DNA of 25,939 nt from a virus. Its lineage: Duplodnaviria; Caudoviricetes. The DNA lies in IMG/VR virus record IMGVR_UViG_3300030330_000338, positions 1 through 25,939 of that record. One strand, 5' to 3'. The number at the start of each line of letters is the position of its first letter. The stretch's first letter is position 1. This document shows positions 4,218 through 25,326 of this stretch, one piece after another. The notes beneath the pieces were generated by a model, which saw only the letters and a program-made list of their open reading frames with translations, did no database searches and was not told the DNA's origin. The position numbers and the translations under genes are program-made.

Positions 4218-7200
4218 TTACCTTCCTAATGCTCTAGTGTCGAGTTGACTATATATTGGCATAAAGTCAGCAGCACGCCAATCCCAAGTAACACCATCAT
4301 AAAGTCTTTCTGCTGTAGGTCCTAAAGGTGGTACCCAAAAAGGTTTTCCATATCTATGGCTCTCTAAAAATATAGGCATAGCTAAGGATGCTGGGCCTAA
4401 CATACCACTTCTGTCTAAAACTTCTGTCCAATATTGCCCTGGTGTCATACTATCGGTTCTATAATAATCTACTCCTGGGTCATCCGGTGATATACCGGGT
4501 AGTGCCCAAGCTAAACTAACTTTAAAACGTTCTCTTATTTCCCAACCTAACATAGTTATAGGTATTAACATACCTGCCATTATTACCATAGGCATAATAG
4601 CTGCTCCTGCATTTTTTCCTTCTACAAAGTTACGATGTGTTTCTTTTAAAGTTGGGAACACTATTGTTTTACCATATGCATAAAAGAAAGATTTAAGTTG
4701 CCATACTAAAGCCCATCTAGGATCGTTTGCATAGGTAGGTCTTTGTGCAGGATTCGGTCTAACAATAGATTCATCTACAAATTGTATTAAGGCTTCATTA
4801 ACACTTTGTAATTGTGCTTCTGTAGCTTTACCTTTTTCCCAAGCTAAAATTTCATCTGCAGTTACATTTAGTTCTCGCAAATACCCTATAGAAGTTTGAT
4901 CTCCAGTTTTTGCTTTTTGTGCATGGTTACTTAAAAATTTTTGTGCCATACCAGTAGCAAACACCCTAGTAAATCTAGTATAAGCTTCTAAACCAGTTAC
5001 TCTAAACCACCAATCTGCAATATTTTTTGAAGTATTATTTATAAAGTCTGTTTCTCCTGCAAAAATAAAGAAACTAGACATTGCATCTGTTCCTATTGCG
5101 CCTATATCTCTCGCTATATCAGCCGCTTCTGTAGGGTTTTTTATCATATCTTTTACAACATCAGCTATATCAGTAACTTTATTAGTGCCTCTAGACCTAA
5201 GAATAGGCCCAGCTGTATCTTGTAGAGAAGCGATTACAGTCATACCCAGTAAAGTAACTATATTTAAAACCAACCCAACGTTATTAGCAGCTTTTAAAAA
5301 TCCGTTTGTTATAGGAGGGATTTTACCAAACATGGAGTCTATTATTTTTCTTGCTTCTTCTTGTTCAGCTTCTGTTAAAGTACTAAGTAATTTGTTTAGT
5401 TCTTGTGTGCCACCTTTTCTTTCAAACTCAATCTTAAGAGCTAATTTATCCATATATTTTTTTATGGACACTTCAGGCTCGTCCATAAGATTACGGTCCA
5501 TAAACTCATCGTTAGGTATTTGTTTAAATAGTTTTTTCCTTTTTTGCATCACCCCAACTTCTATTTCATCTTGCGCAGTAAATTCTATATCTCCATTACC
5601 TTTACGCACTAGTTCTGCAATAGCGTTATCAATTTCTGATATTGGTTCATTAGGGTTATATTCAATTAACAACGCTCTTAAAGCAGCTTGTTTTTGTGCA
5701 TCCCCCGCAATTTCATGAATAGCTATGACACGGGGAAAGAAGTTTTTCCTTTTATCTACGCCATATTGTTTTAAATTAAGCTCGTTATATAGTTTTTCTA
5801 AATACAGTCTTACTTGTTTTGCTTTAGGGCTTAACTGTGCTGTAGGTGTTTTTTCTCTAGCCGCTTCATTTAAAATAGTTCTTTGTTCTTCAGTAAACCT
5901 AGAGTAGAAAAACCCGTCTTTTACTCCAAGTATTCTTGCTATGTCTGTTAAATATCTTTGAGCTCTAGCATTTTTTAAAGTAAACAAACCTGCTGTACCA
6001 CTAGCACTTTTTGTTCTTGGGTCTAGTTGGAAGAAGTCTGCTAATTGCTCACTAAAGTGTCTAAGTCTAGTATCTGCAGTCAACAATATTTGACGTAACC
6101 ATTTTGGCATGTTTTTACCAGAAAATATTTTTCGTACCTGTTGTAAAGCTTTAGTTAATTGTTTGTCCGTAAACGTTTGAGGCCCAAGAACAGACTCTAT
6201 ATTGTTTTCTATTTTAGCTTTCACTTGCCAAGGTATCCTGTTATGGACTTTGTTACCATCTCTTATATCGGTTACGACTTGTTCTATATAAGATTGTGCA
6301 GTTTCATTAGATTGATACCTAAATCTTTGTTGAGGGGTTATAGTGTTGTATAAAGCTATTAAGTTTTTAATTAATCTTTTAAACCATCCTTTTGTAGCAC
6401 CATTCATACTTTCATAATTTTTTAGTGTAGTGTTTGTGTCGCCTATTGGTACTTTTAATTCTTTTTTCAATGCTATAGAAAATTGATCTGCCATCCAATT
6501 GTTAAAGCCACGTTCATCATCAGTGTAAATGTCTGGAGAATTTTTGTCTTTTCGTACTTTGTTATATTCTTTTAATAGTGCTTTTCTTGTAGCTCCTACT
6601 TTTAAAGAAAAATCTAACTCTTGGAATATAAAAGAATTACCAAGTTCTTTTAATAAGGCATCAAAATATTGCCCATCAGTTAACTTTGTACTACCTTTGA
6701 TTAATATTACATCTTTACTAGAATATTTAATTGTAATTGCGTCTTTAAATGGGTCAATTAATAACTTTCTTCTCATATCGTTAAAAGTCGTTTCATCTAT
6801 ATTTAACTTCTCAAAATTAATAGGCCCAGATAATTCTGGTTCTGCATCTAAAATTACAAGATTAGTAGATAACCCTAATTTTCTAGCAGCAGCTATTATG
6901 TTATTTGTAATTTGTTTTCTAAAAGCTCTTTTTGCTCTTGTGGGAACATTTCTTATTAAGTTCCCTGGATCCATTAAAGCTACTAATTCATAAATATTGT
7001 TAAGTGTTTGTCTTCCATATTTAATATATTCATCTTTACTAGGTTTTCCATCTTTCTTTTTATCTGGGTATCTAACTTTAGGTCTATTCCTATCCCCAAG
7101 TATTTTGTCTTGTTCTTGTAAAAAAGGATTTGCCTCCTCAGCAAAAGTTCTACCTTCATCTCTAAGTACTGGGTCTTCACTTGCTCTTCTTGAGACAAGC

Positions 7201-10200
7201 TCTGGATCCCCTACCTCTAAACTAGATACAAATTCGCCAGTATCAGATCTAAAATCTCCCTTATCCATTTGCCTAGCTTCTTCTTTAACAGCTAATCTAT
7301 CACCAAAAAACCCTATTTCTCTGCTATATAAAACACTATTAACATCGTTTTGTTTTACTCGTTCTCTTACCGCCTGTTTATCTATAGCATTTCTAATAGA
7401 TATAGCTGCTCGTAATATAGAATGGGCTTGCGAGTTTGTTGACCTTAAAAACCTACTAAAAACTTTTGCTCTTTTGTCCTCTGCTTCACTAATTCCTTGT
7501 TCTTGATCTCTTTTAAACCTAAGATCGCTACGGGGAGAACTTAAAAGTTGTGTTTCTTGCAGTCTTCTTGGTGCAAATTTAAAATCTACAAAACTTTCTA
7601 ATATGTCTATAAACTCTTCTAATTCTGAGTATTTCATTTCAGCAAAACTTTCTGGAAGACCCTCTTCAAAACCATTTTTTTCTAAAAAAGGTTTAAGAGT
7701 ATTTTCAAAAAAATCTTCGCCCTTAACTGAAAAATCTTTTCTACGTACATCTGGTACTAATTTACCTAACGGGGTCTCAAGACCAATAAATTTATTTCTG
7801 TTATCTATTAAAGCATTAGCAGAGCCAGATGTTCCAAAAGCTTTATTAAGTTGGGCTTTAGAAAAATTTTCTATGTTAGTTCTTAAAACACCAGAGTTTG
7901 GGTCGTCCATTATTTCTGTTATCGCTTTACCTAAATCACGTTGTCCTACAACTACAGTCTTATCTGGTAAAAGATAAGTATTAAAGTTTTTTCTAGGGTC
8001 TCGTGAACCGGCTAAAATCAAACCACCTTGGTTCTTGTCAATATCTACTGCACTTCTTTCTGTAAGCGTGTCAGGATCTGCTAGCTCTTGTTCTGATAAG
8101 ACCGGAAAGTATTGGACTAATATATTATTTTCTGTTGCGTACTTTATAAAATCAAGAAGAGCAGATACTCTTTGAGCTTCTCCGTCTTCTAACTCATTAA
8201 AATCTCTAATACCTTTTTCTTTTGCAATGGTAGTAAACCCTTCTAATATAACTGAAATATCTACCACACCACCTGGCCTTTTAGATGGTACGTCTGGCAT
8301 TCTAACTTTAAATCTATCTTTCTTTTCTACTTTAACAAGGAGCGGTTTATTTTTGTATCTGTTTTTTGCTTGTTGCACTAAAACCCTTACATCATTACCT
8401 ATATCTCTAAATCTACTAGGACTAGTCCCTAAAAACTGCAAAGCTTGCTCTTGTTCGGGGCCGAACTCAACTAATACATACTTTCTATTAGGTTTTATAG
8501 GTGTTTTAGGTTTTTCTTGTACCTCTCTGTATTGTTCTAAAGTAATTCCTAGTTCAGCAGCTTTTTTTAAATCAGGTATATTAGCGGTGTCTACTATTCC
8601 TATAAAACCTGTCCCCTGTGTATTGTCCTGCAAGGTTTTTTGCCTAGCAAGAAAATTTTCTATTAAGCCTTTAGAATAGAATTTACTTGATTTATTAAAA
8701 GTAGCTAAAAAGTTTTCATTTATAACAGCCTTAGCTGCGTCTAAATCTTTCTGTTCTGCTTTTTTATCTTTTTCTCTTATTCTCCAACCTATACTTTCCT
8801 CGTGTGCTTTTAATTCTTCATTATATTTTTTCACCAGTTTTTTATTTTTTCTTTGTGCTGGAGATAAAGGTTTTGGTTTTGGTTTAAATATCTCTGTGTC
8901 TAAATAAGGGTTTTGAATTGTGCCTGTTTGTCCTTTTAAAACAGGTTCGTCTTGTACTGCTGTTTCTCCTGGTCTTACCTTTGCTCTAGTTTCTGCACTT
9001 CTTGCTTTATATTCTTCTAAAGCAGCGTCAAATTGTTCTTTATTCTCAAACTGGTCTTTTCTTGGTTTATCTATGACTGAAGTTCTTAAAATTTCAGCTT
9101 TTGGAACCATTTTAAATTTCTTTGGGTCTTGAGTTTGCCCAGCTAAACTATCTTCTATAGAATCTCTAGCACTAACGGGGGCTGCACTTTCTATAATTTC
9201 TGCAATATTGGTAAGCACTTCGGCAGAAGTTCCTACAGAGTCTGCCTTCATGTTTTCTAACATTTGTGTTTGCGCCGAGTTTAATACTTGGTTTTGAGGT
9301 TTTTCTATTAATTTTGATAGAATTTTAGTGTAACTTGCATTTTCTTCTTTTGTTAAAACTTCACTTCTTATTTTTTGTATTTCTTTACCAGTAGGTTTAA
9401 AAATTTTATCTAAGTCTTGAAGTTGTATTTTTTTACCTTTTGCTTCATTTATGTTAGCTTGTCGTGCAGCATTAGCTATTTTGTTGTTTGCTCTCGTAAA
9501 TTCTATTAGTTCTCTGTAAGTAATATTTAAACCTATTTCTTTTAAATACTGATCAAGGCCTTGTTCTTGCAACTGTTCGTCTTTAGTCTGACCTAATTTT
9601 CCTTCTCCAAGAATTCTACCTTCTAATATTTCTAATGCAGTTAATGCTCTTTCTATTGGGTCAATTCCTTCAGAGGCAGCCCTTTCTGTCCCCCCTTCCA
9701 TTTCAACATCACTTAAATCCTCATCTTCCGCTGTTTTTTGGTTTTCATCTCTTTGTTGAAAAGCAAACATTTGGGGGCCTTCGGTTTCTCTATCAAATCC
9801 TGTAGTTTCTCTTATGTTTAAACCTTTTTTTCTGTATTCTAAATGTTCGGCTAAATTTTGTGTAATGACTTCATACCTTTGAGGATCTAACTTTCCTTTA
9901 ATAAACTCCATTACAGCTTCAGCATTTTCAACTCCTGTTTTACCATTTTCCTCTGGAGTGATAGATTCTGCTGATTGGTAATGCACTAGTTCTCCAGTTT
10001 CTTTGTCTAAAAGTCCTACCACTGCATCATCCCCTGGTTTTCTACCTCTAGAATATATTAAACCTTCTGACGCTAACCAGTTTTCTCTCATATCTGTGTT
10101 AAAAGGATCAGCGTCCATCATGTTTGCAAGAGATTCTGCTTTTTGAGGGTTAGTTGTAAAGTAAGCCCCAGTAGGAGTAGCTACAGTATATAAATTTCTG

Positions 10201-11687
10201 TTTCCATATTTTTCTTCTAGTTTTCTTTGTACTTTTTTATACTCTGCTTCACTATCTATATCTACAAATACGCTGTCTTTGTTTGATTTATTGTTAAACA
10301 TAGTATCAAATTGCGCTTCTATTGCTTTTGCACGTTCTTTATAAACTCTACCTCTTTGTGCAAATCCCAACCTTTCATCATATTCAGCTTCTAATTTATT
10401 AAAATCTATAGCTCTGTTTGATAGCTCTCTAACTTTGTTAGTTACACCTGTAACACTACCTGCACCTGCACCAACTCCTATACCTCCAAAGAACCCAGCA
10501 AATAAAGCGTTTAATCTATCTACTCTTGCGTTTGCCTTCGTGTATTTGTCATCAATACTAAATTTTTGTTGCACGGATAGTTCTTCTTGTAAACTTTCTG
10601 CAAGACCTTCAGAAAGACCAGTAGTAAAACTTATAGTGCCTAAATCTTTAAAAAAACTAGAACCAGCAGCACGTTTAAATTTAAAAGGGTCTTTATTAGC
10701 AAGTGTTCTTCTCCCACCTTTTCTAAGTTGATTTAAAAGAGTTGCAGCTACGGTAGCTTCTGCTCCTACCCCAATAGCCCCAAAAACTGAACCCTGTAAA
10801 ATAGAATCTATTGCCCTAGCGTTACTAACCCCAACTGGTCCCTGATCAGCATAATCGCTCATAGCTATACCAGTACCTATTCTTTGTTCTTGCCCAAAAG
10901 CTCCTAAAATCGCCCCTTGTTTAAATCTTCTACCTTTTATTTGAGATCGCATAGCTGGATAAAGAACGTTGTCTAATATCTCTTGTTCAGACATGCCATA
11001 CTTTTTATTTGTTTTTTGTTTTATTTTAAATGGGGGTTTTTTACCTCTGGATTTTGCTACTGCGTTTTTGTACGCTTTCTCAATTAAATTTTCTGCTTGT
11101 TCTTTTCTAAACCCTTTTTCTGCTAATCTTTGTGGCAGTTGTTTTAATGCTTGGCCTCCTCCAGCACGAATTGACCCATATAATGCTAAAGCCGGTGCAG
11201 TTGCGGTGCCTCCACTTAAAATACTAGCGCCAGTAATTGCACCACCTACCGTAATAGCTTCTGTCAAACTAGCTGCTAAAGAAGGTATGAATTGCCCTGT
11301 TGCAGAAGCAAACTGCATAAAAAAACGGTCAGCGGTAGGTTCATCTAGGAAAGTCTCAAAAGACTCCATATCCTGTAGATATAAACCAGACTCAGACTCA
11401 AAAACATCTGCTTCTCCTAAAAAGTTAGCAGCTGCAACATCATCGCCTCTTAAAGTTTGAATTGCTGCTCGGAAGTTTTTGTTTTGAGCTCTTACATTTG
11501 CCATACCAGAATTTATGCCGGCAGTAAGGGCGTCTATGACACCATTAATTCGTCTTGGTTCTGGTTCGTTTGTTCGTACTCTTTCGCCCCCTATGGTTGA
11601 AATGGGGTCTCTGAAAGTATCAGAAGGTTCTAGTTCTTCTCCACCTACGCCAAGTCGACGTTTTAATTCTTCTTCTGATATAGCCAT
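4218..11687 (-). CDS. Giant putative internal virion / DNA-ejection protein (2489 aa)
   Basis: Long uninterrupted ORF, last of four putative ejection genes. It has Gly/Ala-rich hydrophobic segments near the N-terminus, a charged middle, and a C-terminal region with RPTYANDPRWALVWQLKSF and hydrophobic helices (LVLNIVTLLGMTVIASL, AAIMPMVIMAGMLIPITMLGW). Position and size are analogous to podophage gp16-like proteins. Confidence 0.75.
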   Translation of the reverse strand: MAISEEELKRRLGVGGEELEPSDTFRDPISTIGGERVRTNEPEPRRINGVIDALTAGINSGMANVRAQNKNFRAAIQTLRGDDVAAANFLGEADVFESESGLYLQDMESFETFLDEPTADRFFMQFASATGQFIPSLAASLTEAITVGGAITGASILSGGTATAPALALYGSIRAGGGQALKQLPQRLAEKGFRKEQAENLIEKAYKNAVAKSRGKKPPFKIKQKTNKKYGMSEQEILDNVLYPAMRSQIKGRRFKQGAILGAFGQEQRIGTGIAMSDYADQGPVGVSNARAIDSILQGSVFGAIGVGAEATVAATLLNQLRKGGRRTLANKDPFKFKRAAGSSFFKDLGTISFTTGLSEGLAESLQEELSVQQKFSIDDKYTKANARVDRLNALFAGFFGGIGVGAGAGSVTGVTNKVRELSNRAIDFNKLEAEYDERLGFAQRGRVYKERAKAIEAQFDTMFNNKSNKDSVFVDIDSEAEYKKVQRKLEEKYGNRNLYTVATPTGAYFTTNPQKAESLANMMDADPFNTDMRENWLASEGLIYSRGRKPGDDAVVGLLDKETGELVHYQSAESITPEENGKTGVENAEAVMEFIKGKLDPQRYEVITQNLAEHLEYRKKGLNIRETTGFDRETEGPQMFAFQQRDENQKTAEDEDLSDVEMEGGTERAASEGIDPIERALTALEILEGRILGEGKLGQTKDEQLQEQGLDQYLKEIGLNITYRELIEFTRANNKIANAARQANINEAKGKKIQLQDLDKIFKPTGKEIQKIRSEVLTKEENASYTKILSKLIEKPQNQVLNSAQTQMLENMKADSVGTSAEVLTNIAEIIESAAPVSARDSIEDSLAGQTQDPKKFKMVPKAEILRTSVIDKPRKDQFENKEQFDAALEEYKARSAETRAKVRPGETAVQDEPVLKGQTGTIQNPYLDTEIFKPKPKPLSPAQRKNKKLVKKYNEELKAHEESIGWRIREKDKKAEQKDLDAAKAVINENFLATFNKSSKFYSKGLIENFLARQKTLQDNTQGTGFIGIVDTANIPDLKKAAELGITLEQYREVQEKPKTPIKPNRKYVLVEFGPEQEQALQFLGTSPSRFRDIGNDVRVLVQQAKNRYKNKPLLVKVEKKDRFKVRMPDVPSKRPGGVVDISVILEGFTTIAKEKGIRDFNELEDGEAQRVSALLDFIKYATENNILVQYFPVLSEQELADPDTLTERSAVDIDKNQGGLILAGSRDPRKNFNTYLLPDKTVVVGQRDLGKAITEIMDDPNSGVLRTNIENFSKAQLNKAFGTSGSANALIDNRNKFIGLETPLGKLVPDVRRKDFSVKGEDFFENTLKPFLEKNGFEEGLPESFAEMKYSELEEFIDILESFVDFKFAPRRLQETQLLSSPRSDLRFKRDQEQGISEAEDKRAKVFSRFLRSTNSQAHSILRAAISIRNAIDKQAVRERVKQNDVNSVLYSREIGFFGDRLAVKEEARQMDKGDFRSDTGEFVSSLEVGDPELVSRRASEDPVLRDEGRTFAEEANPFLQEQDKILGDRNRPKVRYPDKKKDGKPSKDEYIKYGRQTLNNIYELVALMDPGNLIRNVPTRAKRAFRKQITNNIIAAARKLGLSTNLVILDAEPELSGPINFEKLNIDETTFNDMRRKLLIDPFKDAITIKYSSKDVILIKGSTKLTDGQYFDALLKELGNSFIFQELDFSLKVGATRKALLKEYNKVRKDKNSPDIYTDDERGFNNWMADQFSIALKKELKVPIGDTNTTLKNYESMNGATKGWFKRLIKNLIALYNTITPQQRFRYQSNETAQSYIEQVVTDIRDGNKVHNRIPWQVKAKIENNIESVLGPQTFTDKQLTKALQQVRKIFSGKNMPKWLRQILLTADTRLRHFSEQLADFFQLDPRTKSASGTAGLFTLKNARAQRYLTDIARILGVKDGFFYSRFTEEQRTILNEAAREKTPTAQLSPKAKQVRLYLEKLYNELNLKQYGVDKRKNFFPRVIAIHEIAGDAQKQAALRALLIEYNPNEPISEIDNAIAELVRKGNGDIEFTAQDEIEVGVMQKRKKLFKQIPNDEFMDRNLMDEPEVSIKKYMDKLALKIEFERKGGTQELNKLLSTLTEAEQEEARKIIDSMFGKIPPITNGFLKAANNVGLVLNIVTLLGMTVIASLQDTAGPILRSRGTNKVTDIADVVKDMIKNPTEAADIARDIGAIGTDAMSSFFIFAGETDFINNTSKNIADWWFRVTGLEAYTRFTRVFATGMAQKFLSNHAQKAKTGDQTSIGYLRELNVTADEILAWEKGKATEAQLQSVNEALIQFVDESIVRPNPAQRPTYANDPRWALVWQLKSFFYAYGKTIVFPTLKETHRNFVEGKNAGAAIMPMVIMAGMLIPITMLGWEIRERFKVSLAWALPGISPDDPGVDYYRTDSMTPGQYWTEVLDRSGMLGPASLAMPIFLESHRYGKPFWVPPLGPTAERLYDGVTWDWRAADFMPIYSQLDTRALGR

Positions 11688-11689
11688 AT

Positions 11690-14600
11690 TTAATCAACGT
11701 ATAAACCTGCTGTCCCAACAACTTCTGGTATTAGAGCTAGTATTGTTCTCCTATCTTGTGGGTCTGGAAAAGCTCTTCTAAATTCTTCTGCAGGTAATGT
11801 ATTAATATATTGAACCTCGTTTGGATCTTCAAAAGTAAGTTTATCTATATAAGGGTCTCCATTCTTATCTAATTTAACGTTAGCCCTAGCGGTGTGCATG
11901 AGACTACTTACGGTTCCTGGAGGTAAACGATCTCTACCACTGAATATTCTAGTGCCCATAAATCCACCTTTTTCATCCTTTCCATGCACTAACGTTAAAG
12001 ACATTAATATGTCGCCTGTTGCATATATTAGCGCTCTTTTAGCGGTAGTACTTAAAGGAGGACTAAATTGATATTTACCATTTTTTAATATTACTTCGGT
12101 TGGACCCCCTTGCCTACTCCCTGTTTGTGAAATTTTAGTAAGTAAAGCTCTGTAATTTCTTGAAGCTTCTCCTTGATTAGAGTTATATACGCTTTGCATT
12201 TGCATTCTTGATGTGCCGTCAAAGTTAGCATATAAATTTATCGCTGAATCCCCATTAATGAATTCTTGAAATTCTGCCGCTTTCTCTGAAGCATATTTTC
12301 CAAACGTTTGTTCTAAAAGCTCGCGTTCATATTTAGTCGACTCTATAAACTCTAACTCAAACTCTGCATCCCCTCGTTGTATCTGATGTTTAGCTTCTAC
12401 TGTTAAAAAAGGATGTCCTGTAAAAGCTGTATTCATATTTTGTTGAAGGGCATTATCAAACGTAGTAGAGTCTGATGCCATTGCTGTTACCCCTAATACA
12501 GCTTCAAATAAAGATAACCCTATAACCGGATCAAAATGGGGTAAATTATAAAGGTCTGGCTTATCAGCTGTTACGTTATATTTTATTAAACCTGCTGCTA
12601 TTTTATCGTAAGTAGCTGGCGTAAGAAGATTTCTAATTTGGTCTTCGTTGTCAGATAGATATTTTATTATTTCTGCAGTTGAAGCAAAGGACCCATCTTC
12701 ATTTGTCGGTAGTTTTAAAGTTGGTATTTCTTCTACTCTTGTAGTGTTTTCTGGAAATGTTGGACCGCCAGAAGAAAGAATAGAAGGGGTTATTGTACCT
12801 TGTTGCACAGCACTAATTACTGTATCTAGTTCATCATCTGTAATAGTTTGTGGTGTAGCCCCTTCCCATCTTGCACGGACTTTATCACGAACTTCAGCAG
12901 CAGAAGCATTTTCTCCGGCAGCTTTAATGCTATCATTCATATACCAAAGAAATAATTTATCTTGGGTTTCAGGTGTAAATAAAGTATCACCTGTTATACC
13001 TAATTCATCAAACCCACCTCTGTTTTTAATATCTCTTAGTGTAGCACCAACAAATTGATACTTACCTACTGGGGTATGAACTTTACCTTCATCGCTTTGG
13101 CCTTTAGACCAGTTAGCATATTCACCATTTATTTTTACAAACTCTAATACTTGGTCCATAGTGCTTTCTGTAGCTTTAAAATCAAACTCATTGTTTTGTG
13201 ATTGTTTCCATAAGGCATCAGGATTATTAGAACTTTCAGCCATTGTTAACTTATCAATAGAATTCATAACTGGACTTAAATTAACATTTTGCGCCGCTGC
13301 AGGAGAAACGTTAACTCCAGATAAAATTGGATTTTGTCTATTAAGAGTATTTAAATCGTTTTCTAAATTTTCTAAATCGGCTCGTAGTCCTACTTTACGT
13401 TGTTCTGGAACTTTTGGGTTATCTAGTTGAGCTTGAATATTTTTTATTTGTGTTTCTAAATTAGTTTTAGGCTGTGTAAAACCTACTCTTCTTAAAGCTT
13501 CATCATCTTCAATTATCTTATCTTTTACATATTGTGCGTAATCATATATATCTTTTTCTGCTCTTGATTTTTCTGCGCGTTTTTCTGCTAAAAGTTGGCC
13601 TACAGTAGTTTCGCCTTCAAGATCTGTCGGCCTTCCTGTAATTGTTAAGCTAGTTCCTGTAACCATACTCCTACTTCTAGTGCCTGGTATAACTTCATTT
13701 GGATCTCTTTGTTCTAAATCTGCTATCTCACTAGTTAAAGTGGTTATATTTGGAGGGGGGCCATTGGTAGTAAAACCCTCATAATTTATATCACCACCAT
13801 AAGCTTCAGGATAGAGACCTTGTTCTAAAAGCTTAACATCCGAAATGTTTGTTTCTAAAGGCATGTTGTTTTCATAAGCGCCTATAATTTCATTAGCAAG
13901 ACTTAAAGACTGTCTGTATTGGCCCATAGAAGTATTAGAAGTCCCTGTGGGTAACGAACCTCTATCCCCCCTGGCTATAATAGTTTCTTTATCAACACTT
14001 CCAAATGCTTTTGGAATAGAAGAATCTACCCTATCAAATAAAGTATCATTCTCAGTTATCCTGTTATATATTTCTTCGTCTTGTTTAGCGTCTATAGCCT
14101 CTTGTAAAGGAGTCCAAAGCTCATTGTTAAGTTCTAAAGCTTCTCCTGGAGTTAGTAAGTTGTTATCTACATCATCGTCAAACTGCTTAAATACATCGTT
14201 AAAATTAACTGAATCTCTTCTTTGTTCTTCAAGTTGTAGTCTTGCTCTTATGTCAGGGAGTATGTCTGACTTACTACCTGCCTCTAAATTTTTAGTAAGA
14301 GCTAAATTAAAAGTTTTGTAAGCTCCTTCGGCATCTGTAAATAATATTGGAGTAGTAGGATCGTTATTTCTAAATATATTAAAAGGAGCAATGCCCCCTC
14401 TTTTGTTTTTATTTAAAGCGTGTATTTGACCAGTATCTCTATCTATTAATACTCCTACTGGAATGCCCCTTTCATTTCTTCCACTTTCTACATCATTGTA
14501 ACTAACTATACTAGAACTAGAATCCATAAGTTGTAATGCGTCATCCATATTTTTTATAAAATAGAATTTATGTTTAGTAGGATCGTTTTGGCTCATTACC

Positions 14601-14884
14601 CCATTTTTATAAGGTTCTAAGGCATCATAATCTTCAGCTTGCATGCCTCCTTTGTTAACAGTTATTTCTTCTCCTTTATCATTAAGTTTTGTGTATTCAA
14701 ATTTTAAACCGTGTTGTCTATAAAAATTGTCATAGTCCATGGTGCCATATACACCATCACCTATTTTTGTGTAAGTTACATAGTCGCTGTATATAGTATT
14801 AATATCGTCAGCTTCTTCTCTTTTTAAATCAGCCTGTCTGTCTGCTAATCTTGATGCTGCTGATAATCTAGTTAATGCACTCAT
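11690..14884 (-). CDS. Putative internal virion protein with lambda-R-like lysozyme / lytic transglycosylase domain (1064 aa)
   Basis: Motifs AES (E550), VGKYQFVGATL and FTPETQDKL at about aa 540-680, preceded by a coiled-coil-like stretch. ATGA-coupled to the upstream gene. Confidence 0.75.
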   Translation of the reverse strand: MSALTRLSAASRLADRQADLKREEADDINTIYSDYVTYTKIGDGVYGTMDYDNFYRQHGLKFEYTKLNDKGEEITVNKGGMQAEDYDALEPYKNGVMSQNDPTKHKFYFIKNMDDALQLMDSSSSIVSYNDVESGRNERGIPVGVLIDRDTGQIHALNKNKRGGIAPFNIFRNNDPTTPILFTDAEGAYKTFNLALTKNLEAGSKSDILPDIRARLQLEEQRRDSVNFNDVFKQFDDDVDNNLLTPGEALELNNELWTPLQEAIDAKQDEEIYNRITENDTLFDRVDSSIPKAFGSVDKETIIARGDRGSLPTGTSNTSMGQYRQSLSLANEIIGAYENNMPLETNISDVKLLEQGLYPEAYGGDINYEGFTTNGPPPNITTLTSEIADLEQRDPNEVIPGTRSRSMVTGTSLTITGRPTDLEGETTVGQLLAEKRAEKSRAEKDIYDYAQYVKDKIIEDDEALRRVGFTQPKTNLETQIKNIQAQLDNPKVPEQRKVGLRADLENLENDLNTLNRQNPILSGVNVSPAAAQNVNLSPVMNSIDKLTMAESSNNPDALWKQSQNNEFDFKATESTMDQVLEFVKINGEYANWSKGQSDEGKVHTPVGKYQFVGATLRDIKNRGGFDELGITGDTLFTPETQDKLFLWYMNDSIKAAGENASAAEVRDKVRARWEGATPQTITDDELDTVISAVQQGTITPSILSSGGPTFPENTTRVEEIPTLKLPTNEDGSFASTAEIIKYLSDNEDQIRNLLTPATYDKIAAGLIKYNVTADKPDLYNLPHFDPVIGLSLFEAVLGVTAMASDSTTFDNALQQNMNTAFTGHPFLTVEAKHQIQRGDAEFELEFIESTKYERELLEQTFGKYASEKAAEFQEFINGDSAINLYANFDGTSRMQMQSVYNSNQGEASRNYRALLTKISQTGSRQGGPTEVILKNGKYQFSPPLSTTAKRALIYATGDILMSLTLVHGKDEKGGFMGTRIFSGRDRLPPGTVSSLMHTARANVKLDKNGDPYIDKLTFEDPNEVQYINTLPAEEFRRAFPDPQDRRTILALIPEVVGTAGLYVD

Positions 14885-18242: not shown

Positions 18243-18273
18243 AAATATGGGTGGTCATTAATAACCACCCATA
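18243..18273 (-). terminator. Stem-loop after the capsid gene; probable leaky intrinsic terminator
   Basis: Perfect 10-bp inverted repeat tatgggtggt (18246-55) / accacccata (18264-73), followed on the minus strand by only TTT and then the next SD. Confidence 0.65.
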
Positions 18274-18286
18274 AAATATACCACAA

Positions 18287-19444
18287 TTAATATGCAACAT
18301 CTAACGCAATAACACCAAAGTCTTCATTCTGACCTGTTACGTCTGAATGATACAAAGGCTTCTTGAGTCCAAATATTTTACCAATTGAAATACCATTTTG
18401 GTTTCCATAGTCAAATGTGTCTTCAACTATTTCAGGAATACCAATATCAGCCATCGCTAATGCTTGTGCGCCTGCAAAGATACATCTTGAATAATCTACA
18501 TCTGCATTTGCGCCGCCTTTAAAACCAGCAGCTCCTGCATTTGATGATGTGCCACTTGTAGCACCAGTAGTATTAAACACGTGTCTAAACTCGTGAATCA
18601 TAATACCGTCAACCATTAGACTTGATGATCCAGAGAACAAGCTTGATTGTGGTCCTCTGATTCCAGCTTGTCTTACGTTAGCAAGAAAATCTGAATCAAG
18701 TTTAAGGTCAGCCATAACTTGTGGAGTTACGAAAAGATGGAACATCTCGTCATTACCCGCACCTCTTAGGCCTCTGATGTATTGATCTTTAGCATAAGCT
18801 TTTAAATCAACAATGGTTTTATAGCTAAGTTTGTCAGCTGCTGTCATAGCAGTAACATCTCCGGCTTGTAAAGTAATGTTACCACTACCGTCAACGTCCA
18901 CTCTCTTATGTCTATTAGAGGTTGGAGCACTTACAGCACTTGAAAACTCTAAGTCGTTTAGATTTTGCCCTGAGTTCATTGATGGTCTTAATGCACCATT
19001 GTTCTTAAGGTTATATCCTATTCCACTTAAAGTGAGAAATGCTAATTGGTCCATTCTGTCAGCCATTGCATATGCAAGTGCGTCTCTTGAATGTTCCCTA
19101 AAGTTTACAACTGACTTTTGATCTGCAAGTCTACCAGATAATCTGTTTGCAAATCTTAGTTGGTCAATTGTTACGACGATATCGAAAGCTCTTAGTGCCT
19201 CTTCGTTACCTTCTAAAGTATTGTCTCCAACGATACCATCACCAGTCATATCGGCTAAAAGTGTTAATACAGCTCTAGCTCCTTTTTCTGATTGAGTAAG
19301 TTCAGATATAACCTGAACCATAGCATTGGATCCGCTACCTGCGAATTGGTTGACGAAGGACATATTTCTAGCGACACGCCAAAAATCACGCGACCAGATA
19401 GTTAATTGTTCACTGGTCAACGAAGCAAAATTAGTATTTGCCAT
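18287..19444 (-). CDS. Major capsid protein, N4-gp56 / DUF4043-like (385 aa; start revised from 19462 to 19444)
   Basis: AAGGAGA SD sits just upstream of ATG 19444 (MANTNF). Motifs ELT.SEKGARAVLTLLAD, LEGNEEAL, IDQLR, NFREHSRDALAYAMADR.DQ, GAQALA.AD and EDTFDYGN. Follows portal and scaffold. Confidence 0.9.
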   Translation of the reverse strand: MANTNFASLTSEQLTIWSRDFWRVARNMSFVNQFAGSGSNAMVQVISELTQSEKGARAVLTLLADMTGDGIVGDNTLEGNEEALRAFDIVVTIDQLRFANRLSGRLADQKSVVNFREHSRDALAYAMADRMDQLAFLTLSGIGYNLKNNGALRPSMNSGQNLNDLEFSSAVSAPTSNRHKRVDVDGSGNITLQAGDVTAMTAADKLSYKTIVDLKAYAKDQYIRGLRGAGNDEMFHLFVTPQVMADLKLDSDFLANVRQAGIRGPQSSLFSGSSSLMVDGIMIHEFRHVFNTTGATSGTSSNAGAAGFKGGANADVDYSRCIFAGAQALAMADIGIPEIVEDTFDYGNQNGISIGKIFGLKKPLYHSDVTGQNEDFGVIALDVAY

Positions 19445-19464
19445 GATAATTCTCCTTATCAAAG

Positions 19465-19640
19465 TTGTTTAAACCAGTCGTCTTTTGGAGCGACTACCTA
19501 TCCGTATACCCACTGTCGTAGGGGGAACGCTCTCGTTACTTACGGATCACGAATCCGGTTAGTTTAACGCCTTAACAGGCGAAAAAACGATTTTTTACAG
19601 GAACGACCCTGGCAAGATATCGCTCTTGCGTGCGAACTTG
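19465..19640 (-). ncRNA. Candidate structured RNA / capsid mRNA leader (unassigned family)
   Basis: Only long intergenic gap in the window. It has at least seven short inverted repeats, four of them abutting over 19568-19629, two longer-range pairings, and 16 CG dinucleotides counted in ~175 nt of an AT-rich genome. Confidence 0.6.
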
Positions 19641-19643
19641 TTT

Positions 19644-19656
19644 TATTTATACCACA
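19644..19656 (-). promoter_or_regulatory. Putative extended -10 promoter TGTGGTATAAAT upstream of the capsid leader
   Basis: TGTG-G-TATAAA lies 2 nt after the scaffold stop and just before the structured region. The same TGTGGTATA 9-mer recurs 1 nt after the capsid stop (18277-18285). Confidence 0.45.
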
Positions 19657-19658
19657 GT

Positions 19659-20684
19659 TTATCCGAAATCTCCACGCATTCTTTTTAAAGTTTCTGCAGG
19701 TAAAGCATCAAACTCATCAACAGACATGTTATTTATATCTACTTTTGTGTCTATTTTATTTTTACCTTTCATAGCAGGTGGTTGTTTTTCAGCTGCTTCT
19801 AATTTTTTAGTGTTGTTTACTACTTGTTTCTTTTTAATTATCTTTTTAGCAGTTTCTATTTTTTCTGAATCTGCTGTATTAGGTTTACCCATAATTAAAT
19901 TTACAGATTTTTGTAAAGCGTCTGCTCCAGTATAGCCCTGTACCATATAAGCATCTCTTAGTTCTAAAACTTCGTTTGTCTTGTCTTGGTTAAAATTAGG
20001 ATCTGCTTGGTTAAGTTCAGGATATATAGCTTCTAGTTGAGTAGCTTTTGTTTGTAAATCAACCATTTCTTGGTTTTGTGTAACTGTTTGGCCCATTTTT
20101 GCTTGTACTTCAAACATCATTTGTTGTCTTTCTGCATCTCGTATTTCAGAGCGTACTTGTGTGGCTTTGTCAGTATCACCTTCTAATAAAAGAGTTTGAT
20201 ATTCTTGTTCTTTAGCAACAAAATCAAATTCTGGAGCTTCTTTTACATCTTCTACTTTTGGAGCGAGCGCTTCATCTAATCTTTTTTGTAAAGCTTTTTG
20301 TTTTTCTAATACTTGGTCAAACCTAGATTTAGGTATCATAGGCTCCTTTGGTGTCGATCCGTCAGTTCCTTCCTCAACTGTTTCCTCAGATTGTTGTGGA
20401 CCTCCCTCATCTTCTGCCAATACTGTTTCTTCTCCTGTATCTTCTGCGACTGCAGGTTCAGGTTCAACTTCTTCCTCTTCAAGTTCCTCTTCAGGCTCTT
20501 CTGATGATTCTTCTTCAGCCTCTTGTTCTGATTCTTCTTCAACTTCTGTTTCCTCCTGTTCTTCCGTTTCAAAGTTCATATCTACCTCGAAGCCTTTTCT
20601 ATCTTCTTCGGTCTTTGGATCTGCTCCAGGCATTCCGTCTAACACGATTTCTTCTGGATTTGTTTTATCTTCTTTCTTAGCCAT
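19659..20684 (-). CDS. Capsid scaffolding protein (341 aa)
   Basis: Between portal and capsid genes. Very Glu-rich N-terminus, MIPKSRFDQV motif, coiled-coil-like middle, and C-terminal INNMSVDEFDALPAETLKRMRGD helical hairpin. Confidence 0.8.
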   Translation of the reverse strand: MAKKEDKTNPEEIVLDGMPGADPKTEEDRKGFEVDMNFETEEQEETEVEEESEQEAEEESSEEPEEELEEEEVEPEPAVAEDTGEETVLAEDEGGPQQSEETVEEGTDGSTPKEPMIPKSRFDQVLEKQKALQKRLDEALAPKVEDVKEAPEFDFVAKEQEYQTLLLEGDTDKATQVRSEIRDAERQQMMFEVQAKMGQTVTQNQEMVDLQTKATQLEAIYPELNQADPNFNQDKTNEVLELRDAYMVQGYTGADALQKSVNLIMGKPNTADSEKIETAKKIIKKKQVVNNTKKLEAAEKQPPAMKGKNKIDTKVDINNMSVDEFDALPAETLKRMRGDFG

Positions 20685-24558: not shown

Positions 24559-24843
24559 TTAACATTTCCACCTTCTTCTAGCCTGTCTTAGCCTAGAATT
24601 TGGATTTTTTGCTGCTTTTGGGAACTTTTTCATCTGTCCTGCGCTTCTTGCGCAAAAAGATTTACGTCTTTTAGCTGCTTTTGAGCCTTTTTTGACTTTC
24701 CCTGTTACTGCTCCTTTAAGTTTTGATCCTGGATTCTTCCTTCTGTAGGCTCTTATACCTGCTCTAGTCATTCCAGCGCCTTTTTTTGTTGGCCTAAAAT
24801 TCTTTTTGTTTCTTTTAGGCATATTATCTCTTTTTCTTGGCAC
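24559..24843 (-). CDS. Highly basic small protein, DUF6321-like (94 aa)
   Basis: GTG start with AAGGAG SD. 36 K+R versus 1 acidic residue. Motifs GMT.AG..AYRR.NPGSKLK, RRKSFCARS.G and SRL.QARRRWKC are recognised from aquatic phage small proteins (family name from memory). Confidence 0.75.
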   Translation of the reverse strand: MPRKRDNMPKRNKKNFRPTKKGAGMTRAGIRAYRRKNPGSKLKGAVTGKVKKGSKAAKRRKSFCARSAGQMKKFPKAAKNPNSRLRQARRRWKC

Positions 24844-25144
24844 GGGTTCTCCTTTTTACTGCAGGTTTTCTCTTCCTGACTATGGTTTTTACGTTGCGTG
24901 GTTTTCCGCCTGGATTACCTGCCGCACGTTTTCTTTTAACTGCACTTCGTCTTTGAGCCGCGGTCATAGACCTAGCTTTAGATCTTGGCACGCATTTTGG
25001 GTATTTACGTTTACTTTTACCCTTTGCGGACTTTCTACCACAAGGTTGAAACTTGCCTTTCTTCTTTGGTGCGCCTATGTCGACCCAGTCACCTTTTGGT
25101 CCCTTTCCGAACCAAGCAGTAAGACCGCCAGTAGGCTTAGCCAT
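24824..25144 (-). CDS. Highly basic small protein (106 aa)
   Basis: 39 K+R versus 2 acidic residues. Motifs GGLTAWF...DWVDI, PCGRK and YPKCVP. Start overlaps the upstream stop (TAATG). Confidence 0.75.
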   Translation of the reverse strand: MAKPTGGLTAWFGKGPKGDWVDIGAPKKKGKFQPCGRKSAKGKSKRKYPKCVPRSKARSMTAAQRRSAVKRKRAAGNPGGKPRNVKTIVRKRKPAVKRRTRAKKKR

Positions 25145-25326
25145 TATCTATATCCGCCGCCGCGTTTTTTATAAGTTCTAACTAACCAACCATTGGCGTA
25201 TGCCGAAGGATAGACCTTAAACTTCCGTTTAGCTTCAGCTTTTACCCTCGCATATAGAGCTGGGTTAGTTGGGGTTGCTCCTTTTCTCTTACTAGTCTTT
25301 TTCTTACTTTTTCTTTTTGCTGGCAT
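25144..25326 (-). CDS. Highly basic small protein, DUF5872-like (60 aa)
   Basis: AGGAGG SD. 20 K+R versus 1 acidic residue. Motif PTNPALYARVKAEAK...YPSAYA.GWLV..YK.RGG.Y (family name from memory). Confidence 0.75.
   Translation of the reverse strand: MPAKRKSKKKTSKRKGATPTNPALYARVKAEAKRKFKVYPSAYANGWLVRTYKKRGGGYR

Follow-up and report, generated by a model that had tools for sequence, protein, structure and literature searches.

The gap between the genes for a putative scaffolding protein and the major capsid protein carries a conserved structured RNA element on the minus strand of the window, i.e. the whole stretch of 25,939 nucleotides analyzed here. Based on the comparison of homologous loci, the element is predicted to consist of six abutting compact H-type pseudoknots (PK1 to PK6, 19635-19476, minus strand). 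It likely forms the 5′ leader of the capsid message and probably acts in cis on capsid expression. As its function we propose, with a probability of roughly 0.45, a decay barrier: located at the 5′ end of the capsid mRNA, the six-pseudoknot chain would block scanning by RNase E and thereby give the message a long life, and capsid protein would be made in excess of other head proteins.

The virus record comprises 25,939 bases and is 43% complete. The minus strand carries podovirus head and tail genes, including those for terminase, a P22-like portal, the putative scaffold and the major capsid protein. The putative head scaffolding protein gene (19659..20684, minus strand; 341 aa, acidic N-terminus, C-terminal RGDFG) was assigned by its place between the portal and capsid genes. 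Profile searches against Pfam, PHROG and NCBIfam gave no match to its product, and the nearest Pfam-bearing ESM cluster, PF09306 Phage-scaffold (37% of members, score 0.92), serves as a lead only. The major capsid protein gene (18287..19444, minus strand; 385 aa) matches PF13252, phrog_334 and TIGR04387, the last one with 61.5 bits at a cut-off of 60. Its product is 51.6% identical to the capsid protein of the Kochitakasuvirus Pseudomonas phages KPP25/phiR18, and among solved structures, PDB 26DE (E 1e-118), reported to stem from Kochitakasuvirus A1002 (PMC13730344), is the closest. In the mechanical list of open reading frames, the capsid gene starts at TTG 19462; the ATG at 19444 has a ribosome site, the Shine-Dalgarno-like AAGGAG (19452..19457, minus strand), and agrees with the starts of homologues. 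About 1000 IMG/VR stretches, forming a large aquatic phage group, match the capsid patterns, and marine metatranscriptome contigs contain pieces identical to the window. GTDB matches to marine MAGs were not taken as host identification.

Elsewhere in the window, two huge virion-type genes (4218-11687 and 11690-14884; 2489 and 1064 aa) are almost without family matches. Upstream of the terminase gene, three small, strongly basic ORFs are located (24559-25326, minus strand; DUF6321, phrog_23735 and DUF5872), possibly encoding nucleic-acid-binding proteins and thereby candidate ligands; in many loci of the more distant group B defined below, similar-looking basic genes separate the scaffold gene from the capsid leader.

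With 214 nt, the scaffold-capsid gap is the largest of the 18 intergenic gaps, ahead of those with 113 and 96 nt, in agreement with the initial annotation, which had noted that space is reserved here in a tightly packed window. Its count of 16 CG dinucleotides in 19465-19640 was reproduced as well. The base composition predicts 9.8, and in 147 tiles of 176 nt located elsewhere or overlapping this stretch, the count is at most 11 in 145 cases and reaches a maximum of 12.

Fold and covariation of the predicted array

Homologous loci were collected by a capsid search, which yielded 80 close loci, 69 of them with a complete gap of 203-219 nt. Once duplicates and loci whose flanks were too short had been removed, 56 sequences (group A) remained for a structure-blind alignment (A1). 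Group B consists of 59 more distant leaders with a capsid identity of about 71-76%, for which a structure-blind alignment was used as well (A3). A further alignment (A2) and the covariance model R1 were seeded from 40 hand-picked rows. A scaffold-capsid fusion by readthrough or frameshift was rejected, as none of the 69 loci has a capsid frame that is open across the gap and the gap lengths fall into all three modulo-3 classes (7/29/33).

The six-pseudoknot structure pairs 94.8% of the 2673 cells in A1, and 25 of 48 pairs show double changes; for A3, the values are 94.8% of cells and 32 of 44 pairs. Slid controls reached 28-44% paired cells across the alignments and 31-43% on A1. One of five measures, the number of further pair types, was not above shuffles in A1. 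In a tree-aware G-test of our own implementation, modelled on R-scape, 10 of 48 structure pairs were significant in A1 and 12 of 44 in A3, including crossing pairs of PK1 (E 0.0014), PK3 (E 0.0003 and 0.04) and PK4 (E 0.004, group B). A stricter all-pairs test was passed by nested pairs only, with 3 of 4 and 6 of 6 matches lying within the structure; the outsider belongs to PK5 and varies as A-A/U-U/C-C. Double compensatory events in the crossing helices, counted on an independent capsid-protein tree, amounted to 9 for PK1, 28 for PK3, 4 for PK4, 2 for PK6 and 1 each for PK2 and PK5. On this sequence evidence, the crossing helices of PK1, PK3 and PK4 are well supported, that of PK6 moderately and those of PK2 and PK5 weakly; the latter two are the least secure because of their one double compensatory event each.

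In PK1 (19612..19635, minus strand), stem S1 UCGC/GCGA (99.5% of cells paired) crosses S2 GCAAGA/UCUUGC (99.7%), and one crossing pair has eight independent double changes. PK2 (19588..19611, minus strand) is built on S1 CAGG/CCUG (99.6% paired, 4 of 4 pairs compensated), and its loop CG pairs with a CG past the A-rich loop. This 2-bp crossing core was misaligned by MAFFT in A1 (60.8%) and therefore recounted by anchoring, which gave 115 of 115 leaders, three CG/TG calls being false anchors; the sole double change is CA/UG in two leaders (L068 and L069). PK3 (19558..19581, minus strand; S1 CGCC/GGCG crossing S2 GUUA/UAAC; 97.3% and 96.8% paired) resembles the 5′ module of the Rfam motif GP20-b; its 28 double changes are spread across three crossing pairs, and a compensated change at 19579/19570 was found in a near-identical contig. 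PK4 (19533..19557, minus strand; S1 CGGA/UCCG crossing S2 UCGU/ACGA; 97.8% and 94.6% paired) resembles the 3′ module of the same motif.

PK5 (19509..19529, minus strand; S1 CGU/ACG crossing S2 CCC/GGG) is of the same module type as PK1 and has the weakest crossing helix. Its stems are paired in 99.4% and 98.8% of cells, yet nearly invariant in group A; S2 is compensated in group B, and the single double change lies in S1. Positions 19522 and 19512 (A1 columns 154 and 162) covary as A-A/U-U/C-C in group A and pair in the standard way in group B, the former possibly as a non-canonical pair or by shared ancestry. PK6 (19476..19503, minus strand; S1 GGA/UCC crossing S2 AGUCG/CGACU; 100% and 93.2% paired) shows two double and 12 wobble-type changes, and none of its crossing pairs was significant in the tree-aware test; the module is missing in three leaders (L089, L129 and L153). 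CG steps begin and end the first stem in 110, 64, 114, 105 and 111 of 115 leaders (PK1 to PK5). A-rich loops follow this stem, and the CG excess of the gap results from these CG steps at the ends of most stems. Both the CG steps and the UAA loops are near-invariant across leaders, and no spacer is present between PK1 and PK2 or between PK3 and PK4 in 115 of 115 leaders.

The initial annotation had drawn a different fold, a two-domain multi-hairpin structure with a long-range kissing loop. Every sequence listed there sits where it had been placed, and the general view of a compact conserved RNA with pseudoknot contacts was borne out by the homologues. The drawn fold itself pairs 82.3% of cells in A1, with three helices at 60-75%. 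Among the 56 homologues, GCAAGA/TCTTGC (99.7%), CAGG/CCTG (99.6%) and AGTCG/CGACT (93.2%) hold, as do four of the five pairs of CGCCT/AGGCG, the remaining one not. The A6/U6 hairpin (74.8%), the closure of a domain by TTAAAC/GTTTAA (63%) and the CCTAC/GTGGG stem (60.4%) are unsupported; the two partners of AACG/CGTT (85.8%) are better explained as pseudoknot strands. Of the two proposed loop contacts, that of GCGA with TCGC was right: TCGC is located immediately upstream (19635-19632), and the variable pair reads C-G in 33 and U-A in 19 sequences with zero mismatch. For the kiss between loop GTCGTT and ACGAC, 92.9% of cells pair, but covariation is absent, and in L068 and L069 the contact is broken and the local partner compensates. 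Thus, the homologues favor six local H-type pseudoknots in series over the two-domain fold with its kissing loop. Single-sequence nested folding, suggested as a check, gave values like those of shuffles (z −1.20 for the minus and −0.83 for the plus strand), which is expected as nested folding ignores crossing helices; another suggested check, covariation in homologous loci, nonetheless revealed strong compensatory pairing.

A pseudoknot-chain finder applied to the window sequence alone recovered all six modules and one extra module over the ribosome site (z 4.6; 0 of 150 shuffles as high). This is a consistency check, since its limits were chosen with the module shape already known. The opposite strand scores lower. 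A minus-strand RNA is further favored by the ratio of 151 G-U to 33 A-C cells. A single-stranded DNA structure or a DNA protein-binding site would also account for a CG-rich, conserved, non-coding stretch; with this ratio, the lower score of the opposite strand, and a strand and position that suit an mRNA leader, such a DNA element is very improbable.

The strands of PK5 and PK6 allow an alternative. The PK5 strand fits its pseudoknot loop in 108 of 115 leaders and an alternative partner, the ACG before PK6, in 106 of 115; RNAalifold proposes this alternative helix, which would break PK6. The ACG (19506-19504) is nearly invariant, although the six-pseudoknot model leaves its A and C unpaired, and in the alternative fold it could pair with the PK5 strand. 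One may thus imagine a translation enhancer or switch, in which the array recruits 30S or protein S1, or in which PK5 and PK6 refold and the GGAG of the ribosome site becomes base-paired to the CUCC of the PK6 loop. Protein S1 is reported to bind and unfold an H-type pseudoknot (PMC7038950), CUCC occurs together with the GGAG site in 82 of 115 leaders, and the helix that would break PK6 fits almost as often as the pseudoknot. However, where the loop reads CCCC, CACC, UACC, AUCC or UGUC, the ribosome site is unchanged and often the 5′ partner changes instead (GGGU with CCCC in 13 of 13, GGUU with CACC in 5 of 6 cases). Moreover, four leaders keep the pseudoknot partner only versus two keeping the alternative only, PK6 is missing altogether in three leaders, and a strong Shine-Dalgarno sequence is already there, so that we regard this explanation as rather unlikely. 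A conserved anti-Shine-Dalgarno switch was rejected, as covariation between the PK6 loop and the ribosome site is absent.

Position on the probable capsid message

Before PK1, a predicted extended −10 promoter element, TG-G-TATAAA, was found (19646..19654, minus strand). In group A, the best −10-like hexamer precedes PK1 by 10 nt in 44 of the 56 leaders, and the TG extension is present in 48 of 56. In group A, the box is without a −35 element and lacks the −7 T in most leaders; TTG-type −35 boxes occur in 27 of 59 group-B leaders. A consensus promoter scan of the window did not list the site at 19646..19654. From the position of the box, we infer a transcript start 1-4 nt before PK1. At the other end of the array, an A/U-rich unstructured linker (19458..19475, minus strand) precedes the ribosome site. 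The ATG follows the end of PK6 at a distance of 28-34 nt in group-A and 25-63 nt in group-B leaders, and the array never extends over the ribosome site; many group-B leaders have an additional hairpin between the two.

A terminator-like hairpin with a T-rich tail follows the capsid stop codon (18246..18271, minus strand). Within 110 nt past the capsid stop, the raw count of such hairpins is 38 among 54 loci of group A and 38 among 58 of group B (76 of 112 in total). In group B, inspection of the flanks showed other genes between scaffold and array in 25 of 59 loci, adjacency in 10 and absence of the scaffold gene from the flank in 24, and the array stays with the capsid gene where other genes part the scaffold from it. 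The connection to the scaffold considered in the initial annotation is therefore weak. The −10-like box, the closeness to the start codon, the travel with the capsid gene and the hairpin after this gene make the array the likely 5′ leader of the capsid message.

As a nascent-RNA antiterminator of the kind of HK022 put, the array might enable the polymerase to read through the long late operon. Its promoter-proximal place and about 16 kb of co-oriented structural genes downstream would suit such a task. The hairpin right behind the capsid gene in 76 of 112 loci and the occurrence of related modules in phages of distant hosts speak against it, and we consider an antiterminator improbable.

One contig from an RNA library covers 19370-19511 with zero mismatch and runs from PK6 into the capsid coding region; the contig alone is no proof of one transcript, its ends or levels. 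Three RNA runs from a single study have coverage, at 95% likeness, in 4, 2 and 6 of 30 bins, chiefly within the capsid gene, while run X24 covers 29. As the runs had been picked by means of the same region, gaps over the scaffold gene and PK1-PK4 were not counted as evidence. A joint in an RNA contig skips 19495-19583 at a depth of 2. No terminator was detected after the array on the minus strand of the window, none is conserved there in group A, and no further copy of the element exists in the window or record.

These data also bear on a free or processed structural RNA for head assembly or packaging, which the initial annotation had offered in loose analogy to the phi29 pRNA. The compact conserved fold would be compatible with such a role, the self-complementary CG cores could pair between molecules, and some group-B leaders possess an extra hairpin after PK6. 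In contrast, a terminator after the array is neither present in the window nor conserved in group A, the RNA-library contig bridges PK6 and the coding region, and the covariation indicates local partners. A free RNA is thus quite improbable. Of the initial interpretation, the conserved, compact, pseudoknot-bearing RNA matching no Rfam family at threshold stands; the two-domain fold and the kissing loop are unsupported, and a free pRNA-like RNA is unlikely.

Occurrence among relatives and the decay-barrier proposal

The finder was applied to 179 distinct leaders with 12 shuffles each; upstream terminators can raise its scores. A z above 2 was obtained for 55 of 55 leaders with a capsid identity of at least 78%, 51 of 56 in the next class, 49 of 62 at 40-65% and 1 of 6 below 40%, compared to 5, 4, 5 and 1 coding controls in the four classes. 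The arrays of the distant leaders (40-65%) are shorter and reshuffled. Model R1 gave 18 matches at E ≤ 1 on 94 distant loci, all within or overlapping the capsid leader. The leaders of KPP25, phiA008 and AP1 were unmatched by R1 at E ≤ 1; they have finder z values of 2.1, 3.2 and 2.8 and fewer modules. For LASTA, BcepIL02, Itty13 and Eline, the finder was not above shuffles. These four phages carry an annotated CsrA-like regulator immediately upstream of the capsid gene (LASTA, L272; BcepIL02, L274; Eline, L275; Itty13, L278) and perhaps use a different post-transcriptional control. Tandem pseudoknot candidates were also seen in the capsid leaders of Rhizobium phage RHph_Y1_10 (L277:1000-1100, z 4.3) and Paracoccus phage KLEP18-1 (L086:2380-2460, z 1.9), cultured alphaproteobacterial phages with a capsid identity of 24-31%.

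A pattern scan for PK3 in part of IMG/VR yielded 120 loci, for which 51 downstream proteins were scanned. Thirty loci precede a gene of the capsid family of the window, 15 a phrog_194-type scaffold gene and one a gene of another capsid family; many of the remaining matches probably arose by chance inside genes or are located before acidic proteins without assignment. Tandem PK3-type modules in two or three copies were noted at L323:660-780 and in L324 (both upstream of an unassigned acidic protein), at L302:700-810 (upstream of a scaffold) and at L312:660-790 (upstream of a 27%-identical capsid).

The intergenic PK3-pattern matches that could be assigned to a head-gene family all precede scaffold or capsid genes, which would suit a translational operator. 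Cooperative binding of free scaffold or capsid protein to the repeated pseudoknots would extend into the A/U-rich tail and shut down translation of the capsid gene, in the way that gp32 acts on the T4 gene 32 mRNA. The CG and UAA motifs, which hardly vary, point to a binding partner, autoregulation of the P22 scaffold has been published, and Bcep22-like relatives have the CsrA-like gene immediately upstream of the capsid gene. The layout, too, is that described for T4 gene 32, where the ribosome site lies in an unstructured A+U-rich stretch behind a pseudoknot (PMC3014915). On the other hand, similar modules occur before proteins of different families, so that a single ligand is hard to name, the number and order of modules vary, and the array is often parted from the scaffold gene. 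The operator, although less likely than a decay barrier, is still a serious rival. As the PK3-type motif is also found before unrelated head genes, a host-directed or intrinsic task is favored.

The decay barrier would be such a task. The proposal starts from the observed sequence, position, conservation and compensatory pairing and adds the supposed place at the 5′ end of the capsid message and a slowed decay. A promoter just past the scaffold stop codon would start the transcript a few bases ahead of PK1. PK1-PK2 and PK3-PK4 would stack without spacer into rods of about 16 base pairs (about 45 Å by estimate), and these coaxial rods would hinder the 5′-end-dependent scanning of RNase E, or of RNase J in hosts possessing it. 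The A/U-rich tail would keep the ribosome site open, and the hairpin after the capsid gene would close the 3′ end. RNase E scanning is reported to be impeded by H-type pseudoknots inserted as obstacles, an effect that is proportional to their coaxial length, levels off above about 50 Å and is not seen with stem-loops or kissing loops (PMC9943677). A decay barrier would explain why pseudoknots and not hairpins are used, the promoter-proximal place, the variable module number and the use before unrelated head genes; if the barrier were additive, shorter, reshuffled arrays and the loss of PK6 would be allowed.

Several observations argue against this proposal. The composition of an obstacle matters little according to the same source (PMC9943677), and the near-invariant CG steps and UAA loops may signal specific recognition, although tertiary A-minor packing would be an alternative cause of their conservation. 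Given the plateau of protection, fewer than six units might suffice for a barrier. The barrier offers no explanation for the conserved AC before PK6, the promoter-like box is without a −35 element and in most group-A leaders without the −7 T, the crossing helices of PK2 and PK5 have 2-3 bp and one double change each, and the leaders of KPP25, phiA008 and AP1 are not found by R1.

Comparison with known systems

A search of the leader against Rfam gave no family at the gathering threshold, in line with the initial annotation, which had recognized no known family. For GP20-a (RF02991, cut-off 47.2 bits), the only match has 11.6 bits and lies inside the portal gene; CbSR14 appeared only at E 9.4, and DUF2815 (RF03084) reached 18.7 bits at a cut-off of 41.2 (E 0.75), with one module only, covering PK6 and the ribosome site. 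GP20-b (RF03003, cut-off 36.2 bits) did not match the leader of the window. When five group-B records were searched with GP20-b, the only matches at E ≤ 10 in three of them fell on PK2 or PK3-PK4 (7.2-14.8 bits); since 9 of 14 control genomes also match at that level, the signal lies in the position and not in the score. Among 40 scanned PK3-pattern loci, the scaffold leaders L386 (52.8 bits), L280 (49.2) and L316 (37.5) exceed the GP20-b cut-off, and L280 and L316 can be parsed as two tandem pseudoknots, one PK3-type and one PK2/PK4-type module. PK3-PK4 has the order of GP20-b, with GCC...GGCG-UAAAA followed by a stem with a CG/GC loop and UAAAA, and both elements stand at the front of phage head genes. 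They differ in that GP20-b, a cis-regulatory candidate, has two modules, is drawn with two hairpins only in the Rfam model line and precedes PF06810 GP20 scaffold genes, whereas the array has six modules and precedes a PF13252/TIGR04387 capsid gene. The array is thus not a member of GP20-a, GP20-b or DUF2815, yet is built like GP20-b. GP20 is not named in the main text of Weinberg 2017. In two loci (L352 and L372), a GP20-type pseudoknot leader lies directly behind a tRNA gene, so that tRNA processing may generate the 5′ end of the leader.

No description of such a pseudoknot array was found in the open-access literature. The element DNAVirus_3698 (85 nt, 180 sequences, marine and freshwater) is listed with two covarying bases and with 37 copies located at most 25 bp upstream of capsid_maj_N4 genes (Fremin 2023; PMC10690425). 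Compared by its published description, it is likewise aquatic, located upstream of the capsid family of the window and about half as long as the array, and it may be a fragment of the six-pseudoknot element. The leader of T4/T2 gene 32 also contains an H-type pseudoknot with stacked stems and an A+U-rich stretch after it, and the message is described as unusually stable (PMC3014915). However, that leader has one pseudoknot, which is bound by the gene's own ssDNA-binding product (PMC3014915), whereas the array has six and is followed by a capsid gene. The engineered RNase E obstacles were single viral or telomerase pseudoknots in a reporter 5′ UTR, as far as described (PMC9943677), while the array is natural and has six in series.

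Several small pseudoknots in series are known from tobamovirus 3′ UTRs and from tmRNA; the former are eukaryotic viral 3′ UTRs and the latter acts in trans, in contrast to a phage 5′ leader. Phages need far more capsid than portal or tail protein, and to our knowledge few cases of post-transcriptional means for this excess are known. The six-pseudoknot leader offers a concrete candidate mechanism in a large aquatic phage group with cultured relatives (KPP25, phiR18, A1002, phiA008 and AP1), and it ties the Rfam motif GP20-b of unknown function to the module grammar of the array. If the barrier is real, it would represent a natural case of the blocking of RNase E scanning by pseudoknots, so far seen via engineered inserts, and a compact mRNA-stabilizing part. 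More tentatively, phages of distant hosts might share CG-framed mini-pseudoknots, two to six per leader, which armor the 5′ end of head-gene messages against host decay, with GP20-b as the two-bead member. The six-bead array would then be the largest one here, set the stoichiometry of the capsid protein and constitute a bacterial counterpart of the nuclease-resistant RNAs of viruses.
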